A stretch of DNA of 64,000 nucleotides from Escherichia coli (GTDB lineage Bacteria > Pseudomonadota > Gammaproteobacteria > Enterobacterales > Enterobacteriaceae), in assembly GCF_051903065.1 (NCBI RefSeq), contig NZ_CP178438.1. One strand, 5' to 3'. The position numbers were made by a program, and so were the translations under genes. Below, one piece after another: positions 3,233 to 61,487 of the stretch; within the stretch, counting starts at the first letter, position 1, and every line of letters starts with the position of its first letter. Below the pieces are notes generated by a model. That model worked only from the letters and a program-made list of their open reading frames with translations. It was not told the DNA's origin and did not search any database.

Positions 3233-5218
3233 TTATGCGCGCTTCAGATAGCGTTTATACCAGCGTTCGAAGGCGACGGCGGGCATCGGTTTGGCAAACA
3301 AAAATCCTTGCCGCTCATTGATCCCATTCTTGGTTAAAAAAGCATCTTCCTTTGCACTCTCTACACCTTCGGCGATCACCTGAAGATTCAATGCCTGGGC
3401 CACAGCGACGATTGCCCGAACCAGTGACTGCGAGACAGGTTGTTTGTGAATATCTCGAACAAAAACCTGGTCAAGTTTGATGGCATCGATCGGAAAGCGC
3501 GCCAGTTGCGAAAGTGAAGAGTAGCCGGTACCAAAATCATCCAGATGCACTTGCGCACCTAGTTGGCTAAATTGTTGAATAACAGACAGTGCCAGTTCAT
3601 CATTCTCAATCAGACAACTCTCTGTCAATTCAACATCAATAGGGCAGTATTCAAAATTGAGTTCCTGGAGAACCTGTTTCAGGGCGGTGAAAATGGTTTG
3701 ATCGGCGAGCTGACGTGCAGAAATGTTTACCGCCACTCGCAGGTTAATGCCTTTATCCCGCCACTTCGCCACCTGGCGTACGACATCGAGAATCACCCAA
3801 CGGCCTAAAGGCACAATTAGCCCTGACTCTTCTGCGTAGGAAATGAAGTCCAACGGTGGAATCAACCCACGTTCAGGTGACTGCCAACGTACTAGTGCTT
3901 CCAGACTGCGCACTTCGCCACGCCAGGTGATTTTTGGTTGATAGTGAATAACCAACTGATCGTTTTCCAGTGCTTTACGCAAGTTGGTATCCAGCCAGAG
4001 ATATTCAAATACCCGTTGATTCATTTCTGGGGTAAAAACGCAAAATTGTCCTCGTCCGCCTTCCTTTGCTGTGTACATTGCTGTGTCGGCGTGACGAATA
4101 ATAGCCGCGCTGTCCGAACCATGTTCGGGAGAGAGTGCAATACCTACTGAACAGCTGGTATAAACTTCAATTAAACCAATGCGAAAGGGGAGCCGTAAGC
4201 GGGTCAAAATTCGTGATGCCATTGCTTCCAGCGCGCTTTGTGAGGTGTTGGATGCCAGTACCAGAAACTCATCGCCACCTGGACGCGCCAACACCTGGTC
4301 ATGTTCGAGACAGCTTAAAATAGCCAATGACACGTCGCGTAATAACTGGTCACCAAACAAATGCCCATAGGCGTCGTTGACCTTTTTAAAATTATCCAAA
4401 TCAAGATACACGACCCCAACTTTATTGTTATCTGCCTGATTAATAGCGTGATCGATTAACTCCTGCATTGCGTTACGATTCGGCAGTCCGGTGATACTGT
4501 CGGTATTTGCCAGAATACGCAGTCGTTCCTGAGCGCGGCGCTCTTCGGTAATGTCGGTGCCGGAACAGATTAAAAAAATCTCGTTTTTGCCACTGCCGCT
4601 GTGGACAAATTTATTGCGAAACAGAAACAGCCGCTGGCCTTTACGTGTTGGTATCCACAGTTCGACTTCATATGCATTGCCGCTTCGAAAAAATACACGG
4701 TTATTGCGCCTGGATGCCGCAGCTTCACGACGGCTCATAAACAGTTTAAACACGCTTTGCCCAATGACGTCGTGTTCGTTCAACCCTGTGTAATCTTCAC
4801 ATAACCGATTGAAGCGTTGGATATTCCCCCGGCTGTCGAGAATCACTATTGCGGAATGTGCTTCAGAAACTACCTGCTCAGCAAAGGAAAGTCCGTGTGA
4901 TAAATCACGAGCAACTGCTGGTGTGTCATGCCATGCAGACGCGTTGCCAGCCCATTCCCGTTTATTGATTTTTCGTCCTACCAGATGCACAGAAAGATCG
5001 CTCTCATCGACGGTCAGACTCATCATCAGGCTGGAGGTGATGACCGTCATTTCCCTGATGCGAGCAGCCTGTTCAGCAGATAACTGCAACGTACGTTCAG
5101 GTTCTGTGGTTTCGGTGGTAGAAAAGCGCAAAACATCGCTGCTTTCCGTCAACCGCCAGTATGGATTGTGCGATCCGAGAAAGTTGTACAACGTTGTGGA
5201 CTCCCTAACGGTTTTCAT
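3233..5218 (-). CDS. pdeR: Cyclic-di-GMP phosphodiesterase (PAS-GGDEF-EAL)
   Basis: 661-aa ORF; GGDEF-like and EAL-type domain signatures in the translation; recognised as PdeR/Gmr (YciR). Confidence 0.9.
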   Translation of the reverse strand: MKTVRESTTLYNFLGSHNPYWRLTESSDVLRFSTTETTEPERTLQLSAEQAARIREMTVITSSLMMSLTVDESDLSVHLVGRKINKREWAGNASAWHDTPAVARDLSHGLSFAEQVVSEAHSAIVILDSRGNIQRFNRLCEDYTGLNEHDVIGQSVFKLFMSRREAAASRRNNRVFFRSGNAYEVELWIPTRKGQRLFLFRNKFVHSGSGKNEIFLICSGTDITEERRAQERLRILANTDSITGLPNRNAMQELIDHAINQADNNKVGVVYLDLDNFKKVNDAYGHLFGDQLLRDVSLAILSCLEHDQVLARPGGDEFLVLASNTSQSALEAMASRILTRLRLPFRIGLIEVYTSCSVGIALSPEHGSDSAAIIRHADTAMYTAKEGGRGQFCVFTPEMNQRVFEYLWLDTNLRKALENDQLVIHYQPKITWRGEVRSLEALVRWQSPERGLIPPLDFISYAEESGLIVPLGRWVILDVVRQVAKWRDKGINLRVAVNISARQLADQTIFTALKQVLQELNFEYCPIDVELTESCLIENDELALSVIQQFSQLGAQVHLDDFGTGYSSLSQLARFPIDAIKLDQVFVRDIHKQPVSQSLVRAIVAVAQALNLQVIAEGVESAKEDAFLTKNGINERQGFLFAKPMPAVAFERWYKRYLKRA

Positions 5219-5452
5219 GATGCATATCCTCCGGTTAACAGCGGAGTCCGCGGTTAAATAAAAGGAACAACATGACTTACATGAAATTAACGGCGGCTAA
5301 ACACATTGTTTTTTTTATATATTTATTTGTAATCTAGTTTTGGAAAAACGCCAGTTTTCAAACGAAAGTCAGTTAAAAAACTGCCGGGATATGATGAAGG
5401 TAGAGCGGGGAAATAAACGGCCCATTCATAAGGAATGGGCCGTGAAAGGAGA

Positions 5453-7387
5453 TTACGCGACCGGGCGCGCAATAATGCTGCGGGTTTCCATGCGGACTTC
5501 GGCAATGGTGACGTCAATAACGTCAGTTACTTTATAAACCGTTTCACCTTTAATTTGTACGGTGCCGTTTTCCTGGCTGCAAACCAGTTCATCGCGCACA
5601 GCGTGTAAGAAAGGTGCCGGAATAAAGGCGATAGCGCCGTTATCAACCAAACGAACACGCATGCCGCCACGGCTGATATCGACAATTTCCGCTGCGAAAC
5701 GGGTGTCGGTCCCGGCTTTGTCTTTCAGGAAGCGTGCGTATAACCAGTCACCAACATCACGTTCTGCCATCCGGTTGAGACGGCGACGCTCGGCCATTTG
5801 GACAGTGATTTCATCCTGTGGACGCGTCGCAGTTTCACCTTTGATAACCGCTTTCAGCAGACGGTGGTTGATCATGTCGCCATATTTACGGATCGGCGAA
5901 GTCCAGGTGGCGTATGCCTCCAGACCGAGGCCAAAGTGAGGACCGGGTTCAGTGCTAATTTCAGCAAATGACTGGAAGCGACGAATGCGGCTGTCGAGGA
6001 AACCAGTTGGTTGCGCGTCCAGTTCACGACGCAGTTTGCAGAAACCGTCCAGCGTGAGCACTTCTTCGGCATCGACATGCAGACCGTGCGTTTTCAGCAA
6101 CGCTGCCAGCGCGTCGGCATTCGCCGGATCAAAGCCCATATGCACGTTATAGATGCCAAAACCGAGCTTATCGCGCAGTACGCGGGCCGCACAAATATTA
6201 GCGGCGATCATCGCTTCTTCGACGATACGGTTGGCAATGCGACGAGGCTCGGCGACGATATCCAGCACTTCACCTTTTTCACCGAGAATAAAGCGGTAAT
6301 CCGGGCGATCTTTAAACACCAGTGCGTGGTTATGACGCCACTCGCCGCGTCGTTGGCAAATTTGCGCTAGCAAACGGACTTGTTCGGCAATTGCTTCACT
6401 TTCAGGCTGCCAGTCACCGGTATTTTCCAGCCAGTCAGAAACCTGGTCATACACCAGCTTCGCTTTGGATTCGATGGTGGCGGCAAAGAATTCGATATTA
6501 TCTTCAATGGTGCCATCAGCGGAGAGCGTCATGCGGCATGCCAGTACCGGACGGACTTCATTGGCGCGCAGTGAGCAGAGATCGTCAGAAAGCTCGCGAG
6601 GAAGCATAGGGATGTTGAAGCCAGGCAGATAGTTGGTGAATGCGCGAATTTTCGCGGCTTTGTCCAGCTTGCTGCCTTCAGCAATCCACGCGGTTGGATC
6701 GGCAATCGCCACAATCAGCTGAAGTTTGTCATCCGGCAACGCCTTAGCGAAAAGGGCGTCATCCATATCTTCTGTGCTGGCACTGTCGATGGTGACAAAA
6801 TCCAGCGCGGTCAGATCTTCACGAACCAGACCTTCATCGAGCATTTCGGTAGCGACGCCGTCTGGTGCTTCTTTTTCCAGATTATGGCGCGCAAGTGTAA
6901 CCCACCACGGTACAAAGTGGTCGTCACCAAAAGTGATGTATTGTGTCAGTTCAGCATAGAAAGAACGATCGCCTTTCAGCGGATGACGGCGCATTTCGGC
7001 AACCGCCCAGTCGCCTTCTTTAAACTCGTGGTTCAGGCCACGGGCTGCGCGGCAAGGAATGGCGTCTTTTAAGAGTGGATGATCAGGAACGATGGCCAGA
7101 CGGTCATTTTTGCCCTGAACTTTACCCACGAAACGAGTCAGGAACGGTTCAACCAGTTCTTCTGGCTCTGCGGATTCACGTTCTTTTTCACTGTGGATCA
7201 CCGCGATAATTCGGTCGCCATGCATGACTTTTTTCATCTGCGGCGGCGGAATGAAATAACTTTTTTGCGCGTCGACTTCCAGGAAGCCAAAGCCTTTTTC
7301 TGTGGCTTTTACCACCCCTTCAGCGCGTGGCGTCTGGGAATGCAGTTGCTGTTTAAGCTGCGCTAGCAGCGGGTTGTCCTGAAACAT
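5453..7387 (-). CDS. rnb: Exoribonuclease II
   Basis: 644-aa ORF recognised as RNase II (RNB catalytic domain, C-terminal S1 domain). Confidence 0.9.
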
Positions 7388-10647: not shown

Positions 10648-10701
10648 GTTGGAGTCATTACCAAAAGCCAGTCAGACAGCGCAGTTGTTCGTATAAAAGA
10701 T

Positions 10702-54032: not shown

Positions 54033-54998
54033 ATGAGAACCGTTAAGGTATTTGAGGAAGCCTGGCCCTTACATACCCCGTTTGTGATTGCCCGGGGAAG
54101 TCGCAGTGAAGCGCGCGTGGTGGTGGTTGAACTGGAAGAAGAGGGTATTAAAGGCACCGGCGAATGCACGCCGTATCCGCGTTATGGAGAAAGTGATGCC
54201 TCGGTAATGGCGCAAATTATGAGCGTCGTACCGCAATTAGAGAAAGGGCTGACACGGGAGGAGTTGCAAAAAATTCTCCCTGCCGGCGCAGCACGTAATG
54301 CGCTGGATTGTGCATTGTGGGATCTGGCGGCGCGAAAACAGCAGCAATCGCTGGCTGATTTGATCGGCATAACGCTTCCCGAGACAGTCACCACTGCACA
54401 GACGGTAGTCATCGGTACGCCTGATCAGATGGCCAATAGCGCATCAACACTCTGGCAGGCCGGCGCGAAATTATTGAAAGTGAAGCTGGATAACCATCTT
54501 ATCAGTGAGCGGATGGTGGCAATTCGCACAGCTGTGCCCGATGCCACGCTGATCGTTGATGCAAATGAATCATGGCGTGCAGAAGGGTTGGCGGCACGTT
54601 GCCAGCTATTGGCGGATTTAGGCGTTGCTATGCTTGAACAACCGCTTCCTGCGCAGGACGATGCGGCACTGGAGAATTTTATTCATCCGTTACCGATTTG
54701 TGCTGATGAAAGTTGTCATACTCGTAGCAATCTGAAGGCGCTGAAAGGGCGCTATGAGATGGTTAACATTAAGCTCGATAAAACCGGGGGTCTGACGGAA
54801 GCGCTGGCGCTGGCGACTGAAGCACGTGCACAAGGTTTTCGTCTGATGCTGGGCTGCATGTTGTGTACCTCTCGTGCCATTAGCGCCGCTTTACCGCTGG
54901 TGCCGCAGGTCAGTTTCGCCGATCTTGACGGACCGACCTGGCTGGCGGTAGATGTGGAACCGGCGCTTCAGTTCACGACGGGCGAATTGCATCTTTAG
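54033..54998 (+). CDS. ycjG: L-Ala-D/L-Glu epimerase (enolase superfamily)
   Basis: ORF 53991..54998; start set at MRTVKVFEEAWPL... Confidence 0.85.
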   Translation: MRTVKVFEEAWPLHTPFVIARGSRSEARVVVVELEEEGIKGTGECTPYPRYGESDASVMAQIMSVVPQLEKGLTREELQKILPAGAARNALDCALWDLAARKQQQSLADLIGITLPETVTTAQTVVIGTPDQMANSASTLWQAGAKLLKVKLDNHLISERMVAIRTAVPDATLIVDANESWRAEGLAARCQLLADLGVAMLEQPLPAQDDAALENFIHPLPICADESCHTRSNLKALKGRYEMVNIKLDKTGGLTEALALATEARAQGFRLMLGCMLCTSRAISAALPLVPQVSFADLDGPTWLAVDVEPALQFTTGELHL

Positions 54999-55701
54999 GA
55001 TGCCAGCGCAGCAAGTTTGCCATCGCAAAGAGATATTTTTCGCTGGCTTCGTCGGAGGAGATGGGCGGAAACTCTGCGGTGATGCAATGCAAGTTCAGAT
55101 CTGCACACCAACTGCCGAAAGAGCCAGGCGTTTCATAACCGACGCTGGTTACCAGAGGCAATTCAAACGCCTGAGCCAGCCATTCGCCTAATTCGCTGTG
55201 TCTGGGATCTTCAATACAGGCCAGTGGATCGTGGAATGAGACCACCCAGGCAGGTTGAATGCGGTGTATAAGCTGGCACAGCGCCTGGGTTTCAGGTTCG
55301 GAGCCAGGTTTGTCACCAGTCAGTAATACGACATCACGTTCTTCAGCGGCGCTGTTCCAGCGATAAACCGTTTCACCTTCCTTCCAGTTTGCCGCCGGAA
55401 AGTTTCTGTTTAAATCCACACCATTAGCATTGGCCCGTAACCCCAGCTGGCAGCCGTCAGGATTCACACACAGCACCACATGATGGCGGCGCAAAGAAGG
55501 TGTCAAAGTCCGCAGAGCACAGGAGAGCGTGACGACCGAAGAGTTTTCATCACCGTGAGTGCCAGCCAGAATCAAACCACTTTCGCGACTGGCTGCAGGG
55601 GCCGGAAACCAGATTAACGGCGCGCCCAATAATGAACGTCCGTAATGTTCTGTTCCGGGCGGAAATGCGCCGCGTTCGGCGCGTGGGCGGGTTACGGTCA
55701 T
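54973..55701 (-). CDS. mpaA: Murein tripeptide amidase (gamma-D-Glu-Dap amidase, M14-like)
   Basis: ORF 54973..55761; start set at MTVTRPRAERG... (242 aa); overlaps the 3' end of ycjG on the opposite strand. Confidence 0.85.
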   Translation of the reverse strand: MTVTRPRAERGAFPPGTEHYGRSLLGAPLIWFPAPAASRESGLILAGTHGDENSSVVTLSCALRTLTPSLRRHHVVLCVNPDGCQLGLRANANGVDLNRNFPAANWKEGETVYRWNSAAEERDVVLLTGDKPGSEPETQALCQLIHRIQPAWVVSFHDPLACIEDPRHSELGEWLAQAFELPLVTSVGYETPGSFGSWCADLNLHCITAEFPPISSDEASEKYLFAMANLLRWHPKDAIRPS

Positions 55702-55991
55702 GATCGTCTCTGGTTCAGGAAGTATTACAGGCAGTGTTGTGCAAATTTTGCGGATTATCAAATCCTTTTCTTCAACGCTATGTCATCGATCTTGTATCAC
55801 TTTTTTGCCGGAAGTTGTTTGTATTTTTATTGATGTGCAGATATTAGAATTGTCGTAATGTTATATACATGGCGTATTTTATTCTTACTGGTTCTACACA
55901 TGTTAATCGCATCTGATTGATCAGTTCACCTTAATAAGTTTAATAAATCGTACTGCACATAGTACAGTACGATGGTGGCTATATAATTGAT

Positions 55992-56642
55992 TTACATGAA
56001 GAATGGCTTATCGCCATCAGTCCCGGGTTGATTGATGCCTATATTCTCACCAATGTGTTTCTCAGGTTTATCGATGATATCTGTAATTAATGCTGCGACA
56101 CTCTTACGTGATACGATCGTACCTTTGAATGGTTCATTGCGTGAGGTAAGCTCATAATCAATAATATCTTCATCCGTCAGCCAGGCAGGGCGAAGAATTG
56201 TATAATCCAGTCCAGAAGCCTCAATTGCATCCGCAGCCCTGCGGAATGGTTTTAGGGGCTCACCAATAACTGCATTATTCCATTCGCCAAATTTTCCTGG
56301 AACTTCATCATAAATGCCGAGGGAAAGAACAAAGATCAGACGTTTAACATCACAGGCTTTCATCGCAGCGATCACTGAATTTGCCTGAATATCTAAATCT
56401 TCCCCCGTAAGGTTGGCATACACAATATCCTGTCCCTGCATGGCCTGCTTCAGTGCTGCATGATTCAGTACATCCCCCATAATAATCTGGCTATTAGTTG
56501 GATAGGGTTTGTGTATTTTTGCTGGCTGACGAGCAAATAAAGTTTGTTTAATGGTTTGTTTATCTGCCAGTTGATTAATCACATGGCGGGCTATCTGACC
56601 GCCAGCACCAAGAATGAGTACTTTTTTCATAATATTTCTCAT
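55992..56642 (-). CDS. ymjC: NAD(P)-binding (NmrA/SDR-like) protein, apparently intact ymjC homolog
   Basis: 216-aa ORF with Rossmann motif ILGAGGQIARH. Confidence 0.7.
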   Translation of the reverse strand: MRNIMKKVLILGAGGQIARHVINQLADKQTIKQTLFARQPAKIHKPYPTNSQIIMGDVLNHAALKQAMQGQDIVYANLTGEDLDIQANSVIAAMKACDVKRLIFVLSLGIYDEVPGKFGEWNNAVIGEPLKPFRRAADAIEASGLDYTILRPAWLTDEDIIDYELTSRNEPFKGTIVSRKSVAALITDIIDKPEKHIGENIGINQPGTDGDKPFFM

Positions 56643-56647
56643 GAAAC

Positions 56648-57580
56648 TTATCCCAGATGGGTGTTGAAAAAAGGAATAACTTTTTCCAGCGCCTCCTGAA
56701 CTGCTTCCGGTTTGTCATACAGTTCATAATGTGAGAAATCGGGTAATGAAACTAACTGACGATCCTGCGAAACCATCGCCCGGCCATAGACTTCCAGTCC
56801 ATCACGATAAGCACCGAAGGCACCGACTTTTTCACCAACTACTACCATCACCGGCTGAGTCAGTAACACTTCAGTAAATGCGAAGGCATCCCAGGCCAGC
56901 GTTTTCTGTGCATGTGAGAACAACATTTTTGTCGCACCTCCCGGTTGTTGCCCGCGTGGTGTTTTATAGTAGTCAGTTGCTTCATAAACATCGCGTTCGG
57001 TCAGTCCATGGGCTTTTGCTGCATCCAGGCTGGCGGGAAGTAATTCGTTGATCTGTAATTCTCCACCACGAGCCTCTTTGGTTCGTTGCGACGCCATTGC
57101 ATTCAATGCGCCAATCGGATCGTAATTGCTGAAACCTTCCCGAAAAAGACGCCCGATATTAACACCCGTAATACTCACTACAGCTTTAATTCGTTTTTCT
57201 GTCAGCGCGGCATTAATGGCATAGCCCCTCCCCCCACACACACCCAGCACGCCAATGCGTTCAGCATCAACATATGGCAGAGTTACTGCATAATCGATAA
57301 CACGGCTAATATCCTCTACGCGCTGTGTCGGATCTTCTATCCAACGAGGCTCCCCACCAGATTCTCCCTGGAAATTGGCGTCATAAGCGAGAACGACATA
57401 GCCTTTTTCAGCCAATGCCTTGCCATAGATATTGCCAGACGTCTGCTCCTTACAACTGCCAAAAGGATGGACGCTGATAATCGCCGGATACTGTTTTGAC
57501 TCATCAAAATTTGGTGGAAACTGAATATTGGCAGCAATATGCCAGGCCATATCACTATTGCGGATTTGAATATGTTTCAT
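56648..57580 (-). CDS. Alpha/beta hydrolase (dienelactone-hydrolase-like, Cys nucleophile GVCGG)
   Basis: 310-aa ORF; paralog of the adjacent upstream gene. Confidence 0.75.
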   Translation of the reverse strand: MKHIQIRNSDMAWHIAANIQFPPNFDESKQYPAIISVHPFGSCKEQTSGNIYGKALAEKGYVVLAYDANFQGESGGEPRWIEDPTQRVEDISRVIDYAVTLPYVDAERIGVLGVCGGRGYAINAALTEKRIKAVVSITGVNIGRLFREGFSNYDPIGALNAMASQRTKEARGGELQINELLPASLDAAKAHGLTERDVYEATDYYKTPRGQQPGGATKMLFSHAQKTLAWDAFAFTEVLLTQPVMVVVGEKVGAFGAYRDGLEVYGRAMVSQDRQLVSLPDFSHYELYDKPEAVQEALEKVIPFFNTHLG

Positions 57581-58512
57581 TACAGAGTTTCCTCAAAGAA
57601 CGGAGCTAATACTGAAATTGCTTCAGCCACATAGGCTTTGCCGTCATAAAGATCCATATGGTTTGCGCCTTCAACAATGTGATAGCGTTTATCCTGGCTT
57701 GATGCCCGATCGTACAGGTCGTCACTCATCCATTTGCTCCCTGCCTGGCTGCCCGCCACAATCTGCATCGGCTGAGTCAGGTACACTTCCGCCATATGGT
57801 AAGCATCATAGGTAATAATCTGGTTAAGGCTGCGCAAAGTAGCGTAACCCGGTGCTGTTGGATACTGCGCACGAGGGGTGTGGTAATACTCCCAGGCCTG
57901 ACGCAGTTCTTCGTTCGGCGCATCGGCCTCCTTCATTGGAGCCAGTGGCATAATGGCGTATTCTTCGCTGCTAATATCGCTGGTTCGGGCGTTTGAGCCA
58001 GCTTCAATGTGTGGCAGAGCATCAATAGATTTCACATTGTTTTCCCAACCATTGCGGAACATCGAACCAATATTGACCGCACTAACGGTACCGATGGCCT
58101 TGATGCGGCGATCCTGAATTGCAGCATTGGCTGTATATCCTGCACCGGCACAAATTCCCATCGCACCAATTCGGGTATTGTCGACATAAGAAAGCGTTGT
58201 CAGGTAATCAATCACGGCACTGATGTCTTCAGTACGAATGTATGGGTTTTCTAACTGACGCGGCTCGCCGCCACTTTCACCCTGATAAGATGCGTCATAA
58301 GCAATAGTGACAAATCCCTTTTCCGCCAGTTTTTCGGCATAGGTCCCGGCCGTTTGTTCTTTAACGCCCCCACCTGGGTGAGATACCACAATTGCCGGAT
58401 ATTGACGGGTTTCATCAAATTTTGGAGGAAAATAGATCACTGCAGACAAAGAGATGGTTGGATTATTGCTGTTAGTGAAGCTGACTTTATTATTCATCAT
58501 TCCGTTCCTCAT
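57580..58512 (-). CDS. ycjY: Alpha/beta hydrolase (dienelactone-hydrolase-like, GICAG), ycjY-like
   Basis: 310-aa ORF; TAATG stop/start overlap with the downstream paralog. Confidence 0.7.
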   Translation of the reverse strand: MRNGMMNNKVSFTNSNNPTISLSAVIYFPPKFDETRQYPAIVVSHPGGGVKEQTAGTYAEKLAEKGFVTIAYDASYQGESGGEPRQLENPYIRTEDISAVIDYLTTLSYVDNTRIGAMGICAGAGYTANAAIQDRRIKAIGTVSAVNIGSMFRNGWENNVKSIDALPHIEAGSNARTSDISSEEYAIMPLAPMKEADAPNEELRQAWEYYHTPRAQYPTAPGYATLRSLNQIITYDAYHMAEVYLTQPMQIVAGSQAGSKWMSDDLYDRASSQDKRYHIVEGANHMDLYDGKAYVAEAISVLAPFFEETL

Positions 58513-58570
58513 GGAGTTGTTGGTTCGTTTTAACGGTTGGTGATATCACTATAGATATTGATCATTAAGT

Positions 58571-58615
58571 TGATTAGACCCAAAATCATGATTAGACCTA
58601 TCATTTAAATGATTA
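58571..58615. promoter_or_regulatory. pgrR divergent control region: direct repeat TGATTAGACC x2 plus palindrome ATCATTTAAATGAT (T-N11-A type)
   Basis: Read directly; sits between divergent hydrolase operon and pgrR. Confidence 0.5.
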
Positions 58616-58637
58616 ATAGATTGTATGGAGATACTGA

Positions 58638-59537
58638 ATGAAGCGTGAAGAGATCGCTGATCTGATGGCGTTTGTCGTCGTTGCAGAGGAGCGTAGCTTC
58701 ACTCGAGCAGCAGCCCGCCTGAGCATGGCGCAGTCAGCTTTAAGCCAGATAGTGCGCCGTATAGAAGAACGATTGGGATTGCGGCTTCTGACGCGAACTA
58801 CGCGCAGCGTTGTACCAACTGAAGCGGGCGAGCATCTTTTGTCTGTTCTTGGCCCTATGTTGCATGACATAGATTCTGCCCTGACATCCCTGAGCGATCT
58901 GCAGAACCGCCCATCCGGGACAATACGTATTACTACTGTAGAACATGCAGCAAAAACGATATTGTTACCAGCCATGCGCACATTCCTGAGATCGCATCCT
59001 GAAATTGATATTCAGCTCACCATTGATTATGGTTTGACCGATGTCGTTTCTGAACGTTTTGATGCAGGCGTCCGTCTGGGTGGGGAGATGGATAAAGATA
59101 TGATCGCCATTCGAATCGGGCCAGATATACCAATGGCTATTGTTGGCTCACCGGATTATTTTTCTCGCCGAAGTGTTCCAACGTCAGTGTCACAATTAAT
59201 AGATCATCAGGCAATTAATTTGTATCTTCCCACATCGGGTACAGCAAATCGCTGGAGATTAATACGCGGTGGACGTGAAGTTCGTGTTCGCATGGAAGGT
59301 CAGCTTTTACTGAATACGATAGACCTGATCATTGATGCTGCAATTGATGGGCATGGATTGGCGTATCTACCTTATGATCAGGTTGAGCGGGCTATTAAAG
59401 AAAAAAAACTGATACGTGTTTTGGATAAATTCACACCAGATTTACCCGGTTATCACCTGTACTATCCACACCGTCGACATGCTGGCTCGGCATTCTCATT
59501 ATTTATAGATAGGCTGAAGTATAAAGGTGCTGTTTAG
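58638..59537 (+). CDS. pgrR: LysR-family transcriptional regulator
   Basis: 299-aa ORF with N-terminal HTH (FTRAAARLSMAQSALSQ); recognised as PgrR/YcjZ. Confidence 0.85.
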   Translation: MKREEIADLMAFVVVAEERSFTRAAARLSMAQSALSQIVRRIEERLGLRLLTRTTRSVVPTEAGEHLLSVLGPMLHDIDSALTSLSDLQNRPSGTIRITTVEHAAKTILLPAMRTFLRSHPEIDIQLTIDYGLTDVVSERFDAGVRLGGEMDKDMIAIRIGPDIPMAIVGSPDYFSRRSVPTSVSQLIDHQAINLYLPTSGTANRWRLIRGGREVRVRMEGQLLLNTIDLIIDAAIDGHGLAYLPYDQVERAIKEKKLIRVLDKFTPDLPGYHLYYPHRRHAGSAFSLFIDRLKYKGAV

Positions 59538-59873
59538 CACTACTTGCTGATACATTAATTTAATTCTTCTCTTAACGTATTCTCAGTTCCTTTCAACGTT
59601 TTGGTTATTTTTTATTCTTCGTACAATGGCGACAGATGCTGATTATGATACCGAAAACTGGTTTGAACGTGTGAAGCCCGAACGTAGTGTTCGGTGTTCT
59701 ATGTGCTTTGCCGCATTTTGGCGTCTATTATTTACACTAAATATGATTTAATATATTGATACATAAAACATTTTATGCTTCCTGTGTCACTTTTTTGATG
59801 GAAGTTGTTTGCATTTCTTTAAGGCGAAACAAATAATTACGCATCAATTTTAATGTCGGTTAGAGGGAAACTT

Positions 59874-61487
59874 ATGAAGCACTCTGTTTCAGTCACGTGT
59901 TGTGCGCTGTTGGTCAGCAGCATTTCTCTTTCGTATGCTGCAGAAGTTCCGAGCGGCACAGTACTGGCAGAGAAGCAGGAGCTGGTGCGCCACATTAAAG
60001 ATGAGCCTGCGTCGCTGGATCCCGCTAAAGCCGTGGGCCTGCCAGAGATTCAGGTCATTCGCGATCTTTTTGAAGGACTGGTGAATCAGAACGAGAAAGG
60101 GGAGATTGTCCCCGGCGTTGCGACTCAGTGGAAAAGTAATGACAACCGTATCTGGACTTTTACCCTGCGCGATAACGCAAAATGGGCGGATGGCACACCG
60201 GTAACGGCGCAAGATTTTGTCTACAGCTGGCAGCGTCTGGTGGACCCGAAAACGCTATCGCCATTTGCATGGTTTGCCGCGCTGGCGGGAATCAACAACG
60301 CACAGGCGATTATTGATGGTAAAGCTACGCCTGACCAGCTTGGCGTCACCGCAGTTGATGCCCATACTTTGAAAATTCAGCTTGATAAACCGTTGCCGTG
60401 GTTTGTGAATTTAACCGCTAACTTTGCCTTCTTCCCGGTGCAAAAAGCCAACGTAGAAAGCGGTAAAGAGTGGACGAAACCCGGAAATCTGATCGGCAAT
60501 GGCGCTTATGTTCTTAAAGAGCGCGTAGTCAATGAAAAACTGGTCGTGGTACCGAATACCCATTATTGGGATAACGCCAAAACGGTACTGCAAAAAGTGA
60601 CCTTCCTGCCAATTAATCAGGAATCCGCAGCCACTAAGCGTTACCTCGCGGGGGATATTGATATCACCGAATCCTTCCCGAAAAATATGTATCAGAAGCT
60701 GTTGAAGGATATTCCGGGGCAGGTTTATACGCCGCCGCAGCTCGGGACCTATTATTATGCGTTTAACACGCAAAAAGGGCCGACGGCAGATCAGCGCGTT
60801 CGTCTGGCATTAAGTATGACGATAGATCGCCGCCTGATGACCGAAAAAGTATTAGGGACGGGCGAAAAGCCAGCGTGGCATTTTACACCAGATGTTACCG
60901 CCGGATTTACGCCGGAACCTTCGCCGTTTGAACAAATGAGTCAGGAAGAACTGAATGCGCAGGCAAAAACTTTGTTGAGCGCAGCTGGTTATGGTCCGCA
61001 AAAACCGCTGAAGCTGACGCTTTTGTATAACACTTCAGAAAACCATCAAAAAATTGCGATTGCTGTAGCATCGATGTGGAAAAAGAACCTTGGCGTAGAT
61101 GTTAAATTGCAAAATCAGGAATGGAAAACCTATATCGATAGCCGTAACACCGGCAATTTTGATGTTATCCGCGCCTCATGGGTGGGGGATTATAATGAAC
61201 CCTCCACTTTCCTGACATTATTAACGTCAACGCATTCAGGAAATATTTCACGCTTTAACAATCCGGCATACGACAAAGTTCTGGCCCAGGCATCGACGGA
61301 AAATACCGTTAAAGCGCGTAATGCCGATTACAACGCGGCAGAAAAAATCCTCATGGAGCAAGCACCGATTGCACCAATTTATCAATATACCAATGGACGA
61401 TTAATCAAGCCGTGGCTGAAAGGTTATCCCATTAATAACCCGGAAGATGTGGCGTACAGTCGGACTATGTATATTGTGAAGCATTGA
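59874..61487 (+). CDS. mppA: Periplasmic murein tripeptide-binding protein
   Basis: ORF 59853..61487; start set at MKHSVSVTCCALL... (537 aa) after an agagggaaa ribosome-binding site. Confidence 0.9.
   Translation: MKHSVSVTCCALLVSSISLSYAAEVPSGTVLAEKQELVRHIKDEPASLDPAKAVGLPEIQVIRDLFEGLVNQNEKGEIVPGVATQWKSNDNRIWTFTLRDNAKWADGTPVTAQDFVYSWQRLVDPKTLSPFAWFAALAGINNAQAIIDGKATPDQLGVTAVDAHTLKIQLDKPLPWFVNLTANFAFFPVQKANVESGKEWTKPGNLIGNGAYVLKERVVNEKLVVVPNTHYWDNAKTVLQKVTFLPINQESAATKRYLAGDIDITESFPKNMYQKLLKDIPGQVYTPPQLGTYYYAFNTQKGPTADQRVRLALSMTIDRRLMTEKVLGTGEKPAWHFTPDVTAGFTPEPSPFEQMSQEELNAQAKTLLSAAGYGPQKPLKLTLLYNTSENHQKIAIAVASMWKKNLGVDVKLQNQEWKTYIDSRNTGNFDVIRASWVGDYNEPSTFLTLLTSTHSGNISRFNNPAYDKVLAQASTENTVKARNADYNAAEKILMEQAPIAPIYQYTNGRLIKPWLKGYPINNPEDVAYSRTMYIVKH

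Follow-up and report, generated by a model that had tools for sequence, protein, structure and literature searches.

Our main finding is that two copies of a short direct repeat, lying on either side of a foreign gene block in Escherichia coli, are best read as the duplicated core of the ancestral divergent promoter region of mpaA and mppA. The copies would flank an inserted cassette of about 4 kb, the left one serving mpaA and the right one mppA, and we give this reading a probability of roughly 0.8. The window analyzed here, that is, the whole stretch of DNA examined, is 64 kb long. Read in this way, the repeat is an ordinary and explainable feature, one more example of events of a well-known type, and a puzzling repeat is accounted for without a new regulator. 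No description of it was found in the literature searched.

A repeat search delimited two 37-nt copies, both on the + strand: the right, mppA-proximal copy at 59780-59816 and the left, mpaA-proximal copy at 55790-55826, with a start-to-start distance of 3990. The copies are identical at 32 of 37 positions, and the 30-nt cores that they contain (59787-59816 and 55797-55826) at 27 of 30, while similarity is lost sharply beyond both sides of the copies. Positions 59787-59818 read TCACTTTTTTGATGGAAGTTGTTTGCATTTCT, and their partner at 55797-55828 reads TCACTTTTTTGCCGGAAGTTGTTTGTATTTTT. When the 25-nt pattern TCACTTTTTTGNNGGAAGTTGTTTG was searched with up to three mismatches, exactly two matches were obtained in the 64-kb window and none in any of 100 shuffled controls, so that none is expected by chance. 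The motif described in a first-pass annotation of this DNA is therefore real, and its second copy does lie, as had been proposed, between pgrR and mppA and in the orientation of mppA. One detail had to be corrected: with both copies on the + strand and mpaA transcribed from the - strand, the motif points the same way as mppA and is inverted relative to mpaA. At the scale of the species, a 43-nt repeat query was found at 10,654 places across 5,418 E. coli genomes, with a median of two per genome, and we therefore regard it as present once or twice per genome, and not as a dispersed repeat.

Gene coordinates in the window were taken from the annotation of strain 23CRST027, which is 100% identical to it. 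The order is ycjG (+), mpaA (54973-55701, -), encoding the murein tripeptide amidase, the left copy, a gene for an NmrA-type SDR (55992-56630, -), an alpha/beta hydrolase gene (56648-57580, -), the ycjY hydrolase gene (57580-58500, -), the LysR regulator gene pgrR (58638-59537, +), a queH fragment, the right copy, and mppA (59874-61487, +), encoding the murein tripeptide binding protein. The accessory block inserted between the two copies, to which no strand applies, thus extends from 55827 to 59779. It contains no annotated transposase or integrase and no tRNA, and no inverted repeat joins its ends. What is annotated as queH (epoxyqueuosine reductase) after pgrR is a pseudogene fragment of 75 nt, or 25 codons (59635-59709, +), with which two terminator-like hairpins are associated, at 59678-59694 and 59709-59723; the fragment probably survives from the donor context. 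At the other end of the block, just downstream of the SDR gene on the - strand, a hairpin with a 7-bp stem (CGTACTG...CAGTACG, 55950-55972) and no T-run is a possible weak terminator between the cassette operon and the mpaA promoter. Further out, ycjG and mpaA are convergent, and their coding regions overlap by 26 nt at the 3' ends (54973-54998).

The state of the locus without the block was searched for with a chimeric query of 1011 nt, composed of the left flank, one copy of the repeat and the right flank. One unbroken 1011-nt match, at about 98% identity, was found in 174 of 5426 complete E. coli genomes, in which mpaA and mppA are adjacent and divergent. The single copy of strain GF4-3 is left-like through TCTTGTA and right-like from GAT on. 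This GAT type of empty site is present in about 169 E. coli genomes; of the other five, at least one, strain 20AR0192, has a GCC type. As for other species, 80 loci were fetched through MpaA, and in 74 of them mppA and mpaA are divergent, separated mostly by 180 to 200 nt in which the motif is present once. These 74 cover Escherichia albertii, E. whittamii and further Escherichia lineages, Citrobacter, Enterobacter, Leclercia, Klebsiella, Kluyvera and other Enterobacteriaceae. Among the loci compared, the pgrR block occupies the mpaA-mppA spacer only in E. coli and in Escherichia sp. E1V33. Since 74 other species of Enterobacteriaceae keep adjacent mpaA and mppA with one copy, the empty arrangement is the ancestral one.

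The single copy of the nearest outgroup reads TCTTGTATCACTTTTTTGCCGGAAGTTGTTTGCATTTCT, and its comparison with K-12 and E1V33 suggests that the stretch originally duplicated was about 30 nt long, namely TCACTTTTTTGCCGGAAGTTGTTTGCATTT. Most of the E. coli empty sites would not themselves be ancestral: because about 169 of them carry the GAT of the right copy, which has no counterpart in the Escherichia outgroups compared, we infer that they arose by secondary loss of the block through its repeats. The left copy of E1V33 resembles that of E. coli and its right copy the native form, and these copy types suggest that the block was transferred between species by homologous exchange. K-12 and E1V33 have the same internal deletion, which removes the SDR and second hydrolase genes.

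The block has relatives outside this locus. Homologues of PgrR with 87 to 89% identity are present in Klebsiella, Raoultella, Kluyvera, Citrobacter, Enterobacter and Salmonella, and the whole four-gene cassette (SDR, hydrolase, hydrolase and the divergent LysR gene pgrR) was also recovered in Raoultella, in Klebsiella-type plasmid-like contigs and in further related contigs. At the nucleotide level these cassettes are about 79% identical to the window, over 55921-59537 for Raoultella and 55983-59536 for the Klebsiella-type contigs. Their neighbors are an oxidoreductase/ADH in three of the four gene sets examined and, in the Klebsiella-type contigs, genes of plasmid type (ParB, SSB, TacAT); elsewhere, then, the cassette is unlinked to mpaA/mppA and to peptidoglycan genes. 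On these comparisons, the cassette is of foreign origin. The Raoultella and Klebsiella-type cassette loci have no copy of the motif, and since cassettes elsewhere lack it, the duplicated sequence came from the target and not from the element. The two ends of the block (55827-55920 and 59538-59779) have no match outside Escherichia, and queH was next to pgrR in none of the cassette contexts examined, so that the immediate donor was not found among them.

The left copy belongs to a mapped promoter. Kim et al. 2012 (Table S1, PMC3415461) place the K-12 mpaA start at NC_000913.2 1388705 (-), with 20 reads, and give AACTAATAAAATGCAAACAACTTCCGGCAAAAAAGTGATACAAGATCGATG as the sequence upstream of it; this position corresponds to NC_000913.3 1390681. 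Cho et al. 2014 (Table S6, PMC3923258) report the same start with 37 reads, bound by sigma70 and sigmaS in ChIP, and assign it to a transcription unit consisting of mpaA alone. The published upstream string matches the left-copy region in reverse complement, the TSS-proximal 37 nt of its 51 nt being identical, and the K-12 site could be transferred to the window through this matching promoter sequence. The mpaA start thereby falls at 55784 on the - strand, 13 nt from the core of the left copy, and the core, read on that strand, spans -13 to -42 of the mapped promoter. The left end of the copy holds an extended -10 element, TGaTACAAG (55791-55799, -), with the hexamer TACAAG at -12 to -7 and the TG at -15/-14. 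In the spacer alignment of 74 species, TGA is found on the mpaA strand at a fixed offset in 70. No recognizable -35 element accompanies it: AACAAC stands at -35 to -30, and a consensus scan finds no site in 55650-56000. Extended -10 promoters tolerate a missing -35. The equivalent of the mpaA -10 in the right copy (59781-59789) reads TGaCACAGG, and because this is a poorer match, the mpaA-type -10 of the right copy is presumably inactive.

The right copy, for its part, coincides with a predicted promoter of mppA. A promoter scan returned TTTGCA-18-AATAAT at 59808-59837, which matches at 9 of 12 positions and falls within the 16 to 18-nt spacing rule. The predicted -35, TTTGCA (59808-59813, +), lies inside the copy, which also holds a T-rich segment upstream of it; the predicted -10, AATAAT (59832-59837, +), lies beyond the repeat, within the right flank of ancestral sequence, and no mppA -10 is present in the left copy. 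Across the 74-species spacer alignment, AATAAT and the TTGC of the -35 are both present in 74 of 74, with spacing fixed at 18 nt. These elements would put the mppA start near 59843-59844, which corresponds in K-12 to about NC_000913.3 1393196-1393197, and the core of the right copy is strongly predicted to span about -57 to -28 of the mppA promoter. The only start assigned to mppA in Kim 2012 and Cho 2014 lies 489 nt upstream, inside pgrR, and has 6 reads; the promoter in the spacer is perhaps not active under the conditions used there, or transcription of mppA may proceed in another way. A CRP site, CGTGAACCGGGTCACA, has been reported at ycjZ/mppA for ETEC H10407 (PMC4287617). It is not in the spacer of the window, where its only match, with two mismatches, is at 21504.

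We propose the following origin for the two copies. In the ancestral spacer the promoters would have stood back to back, the mapped mpaA start and the predicted mppA start being about 70 bp apart and the -35 regions overlapping by 2 bp. In the Escherichia lineage, a cassette of about 4 kb (SDR, two hydrolases, pgrR and the queH remnant) would have been inserted into this promoter core, in such a way that about 30 to 37 bp of it were left on both sides of the block. Because the core is present on both sides, mpaA and mppA would each keep a complete promoter. The left copy would supply positions -13 to -42 to mpaA, whose extended -10 straddles the boundary of the repeat, and the right copy would supply the TTTGCA -35 and the T-rich segment upstream of it to mppA, with AATAAT following in unique ancestral sequence. 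In each copy, the portion once used by the opposite gene would now be a relic, and the two repeats could also allow the block to be lost precisely. An insertion without duplication of the core would presumably cripple one of the two promoters, which may explain the survival of this particular event. The duplication, at 30 to 37 bp, exceeds the typical length of a target-site duplication. A target-site duplication made by a transposon was considered and rejected: such duplications measure 2 to 14 bp, and the block has neither terminal inverted repeats nor a transposase.

The first-pass annotation had spoken of a motif shared by mpaA and mppA. It is indeed common to the two upstream regions, but a co-regulatory role is not the reason for its two copies, which we regard as copies by descent. 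LysR-type operators have a T-N11-A dyad and normally lie in the divergent spacer of the regulator's own gene. That the motif is an operator, at which PgrR or some other murein-peptide regulator controls mpaA and mppA together and both copies are kept by need, appears unlikely to us, even though the two genes act in one pathway. The duplication at insertion fully explains the presence of two copies, and the motif is conserved at this locus in genera without pgrR there, so that at this locus it predates the pgrR insertion. The sequence itself can be argued both ways. Outside the hexamers, T15-T17 are conserved in 61 to 73 of the 74 species and AAG in 66 to 69, and because of this conservation of non-hexamer TTT and AAG something beyond RNA polymerase contacts may be read in the repeat. 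A dyad, weak in E. coli (ACTT-N9-AAGT), is perfect in Leclercia (CAACTT-N8-AAGTTG), but it remains imperfect in E. coli and is absent in Klebsiella and Kluyvera; moreover, the 64-kb window has the pattern at no other place, not even upstream of ycjG. As cited in PMC5934670 and PMC5493296, the PgrR (YcjZ) regulon of Shimada et al. 2013 lists mpaA as part of ycjY-ymjDC-mpaA. The locus is the same, with pgrR between the repeat copies. It differs in that the SELEX peak reported in PMC5934670 is in the ycjY/pgrR spacer and not at these copies, that mpaA has its own mapped start at the left copy, and that the pgrR cassette of other genera is unlinked to mpaA/mppA. PgrR is thus an unlikely binder of the repeat copies.

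Recombination offers another explanation of the motif, as an att-like site at which a site-specific recombinase integrates and excises the cassette, the spacer being a preferred place for islets. We hold this to be quite improbable. Direct repeats do bound the block, precise empty sites with one copy each do exist, and E. coli has two kinds of them, GAT and GCC; yet the empty sites are accounted for just as well by deletion between short homologies or by ordinary homologous exchange. Neither in the block nor beside it is there a gene for an integrase or recombinase, a tRNA target is likewise missing, and related cassettes elsewhere do not have the motif at their ends. An unrelated islet, cdtABC, is found in the same spacer in Salmonella enterica subsp. 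arizonae and diarizonae, which speaks for a preferred site, but it has no flanking repeat. In one fetched locus this islet, cdtA-cdtB-cdtC (Pfam CDtoxinA, Exo_endo_phos, CDtoxinA), extends over 4449-6677. Ancestral sequence on the mpaA side of the islet ends at the start of the motif, and the ancestral mppA promoter is gone. The broader proposal that the 30-bp core is either a shared operator of a regulator of murein-peptide catabolism or a recombination-prone landing site that captured islets at least twice, with the pgrR cassette and with cdtABC, is doubtful as well. Two readings of the letters alone fare worse. A sigma54 (-24/-12) promoter could be sought in TGG-N-TTGCA within GATGGAAGTTGTTTGCA, as the right copy has both the GG and the TTGCA elements; it is very improbable, given that the GG-to-GC spacing is 9 nt and not the required 10, that in this strain the left copy has GT in place of GC, that the GG is replaced in Klebsiella and Kluyvera, and that TTGCA pairs with the invariant AATAAT at sigma70 spacing. 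Finally, chance similarity or membership in a dispersed repeat family (REP/BIME, ERIC, MITE) is scarcely credible: the copies are both intergenic and AT-rich, which is all that favors it, and against it stand the empty shuffles, the one or two copies per genome across the 5,418 genomes and the fact that the copies are not palindromic. A search of 55500-60100 against Rfam gave only a sub-threshold match to RAGATH-10, inside pgrR.

The duplicated promoter core that we favor resembles two known kinds of arrangement without being identical to either. In back-to-back divergent promoters of sigma70 type, as here, one spacer drives two genes and the upstream regions overlap, whereas in the window the core is duplicated and its halves stand 4 kb apart, each promoter having a private copy. 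Direct repeats that flank an islet, be they target-site duplications or attL/attR, likewise go with an empty site that has one copy and with presence or absence of the islet within a species. The repeat of the window differs from them in measuring 30 to 37 bp and in coming without transposase, integrase, terminal inverted repeats, tRNA target or an att site borne by the element.

If this origin is correct, mpaA and mppA have retained their ancestral, private promoters despite a 4-kb insertion, and mpaA need not be only the terminal member of a ycjY-ymjDC-mpaA operon. That pgrR is linked to genes of peptidoglycan recycling would then be a recent, Escherichia-specific accident of insertion, which tempers neighborhood-based inference for PgrR; indeed, because the cassette elsewhere is unlinked to peptidoglycan genes, the link of PgrR with peptidoglycan may rest largely on its E. 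coli neighborhood. The filled and empty alleles also constitute a natural pair in which to follow the effects of an insertion into a divergent promoter.

Two minor features were noted around the mpaA start. Downstream of it, in the 5' UTR of the - strand transcript, two blocks, GCAGTGTTGTGCAAA and AATCAAATnGTTT (about 55733-55749 and 55759-55772), are almost invariant in 74 species of Enterobacteriaceae and have no Rfam match; a repressor site and an RNA leader are both possibilities. In K-12, the annotated ymjC ORF (b4525; 4681-4863 of the fetched K-12 locus) overlaps both the left copy and the mapped mpaA start.
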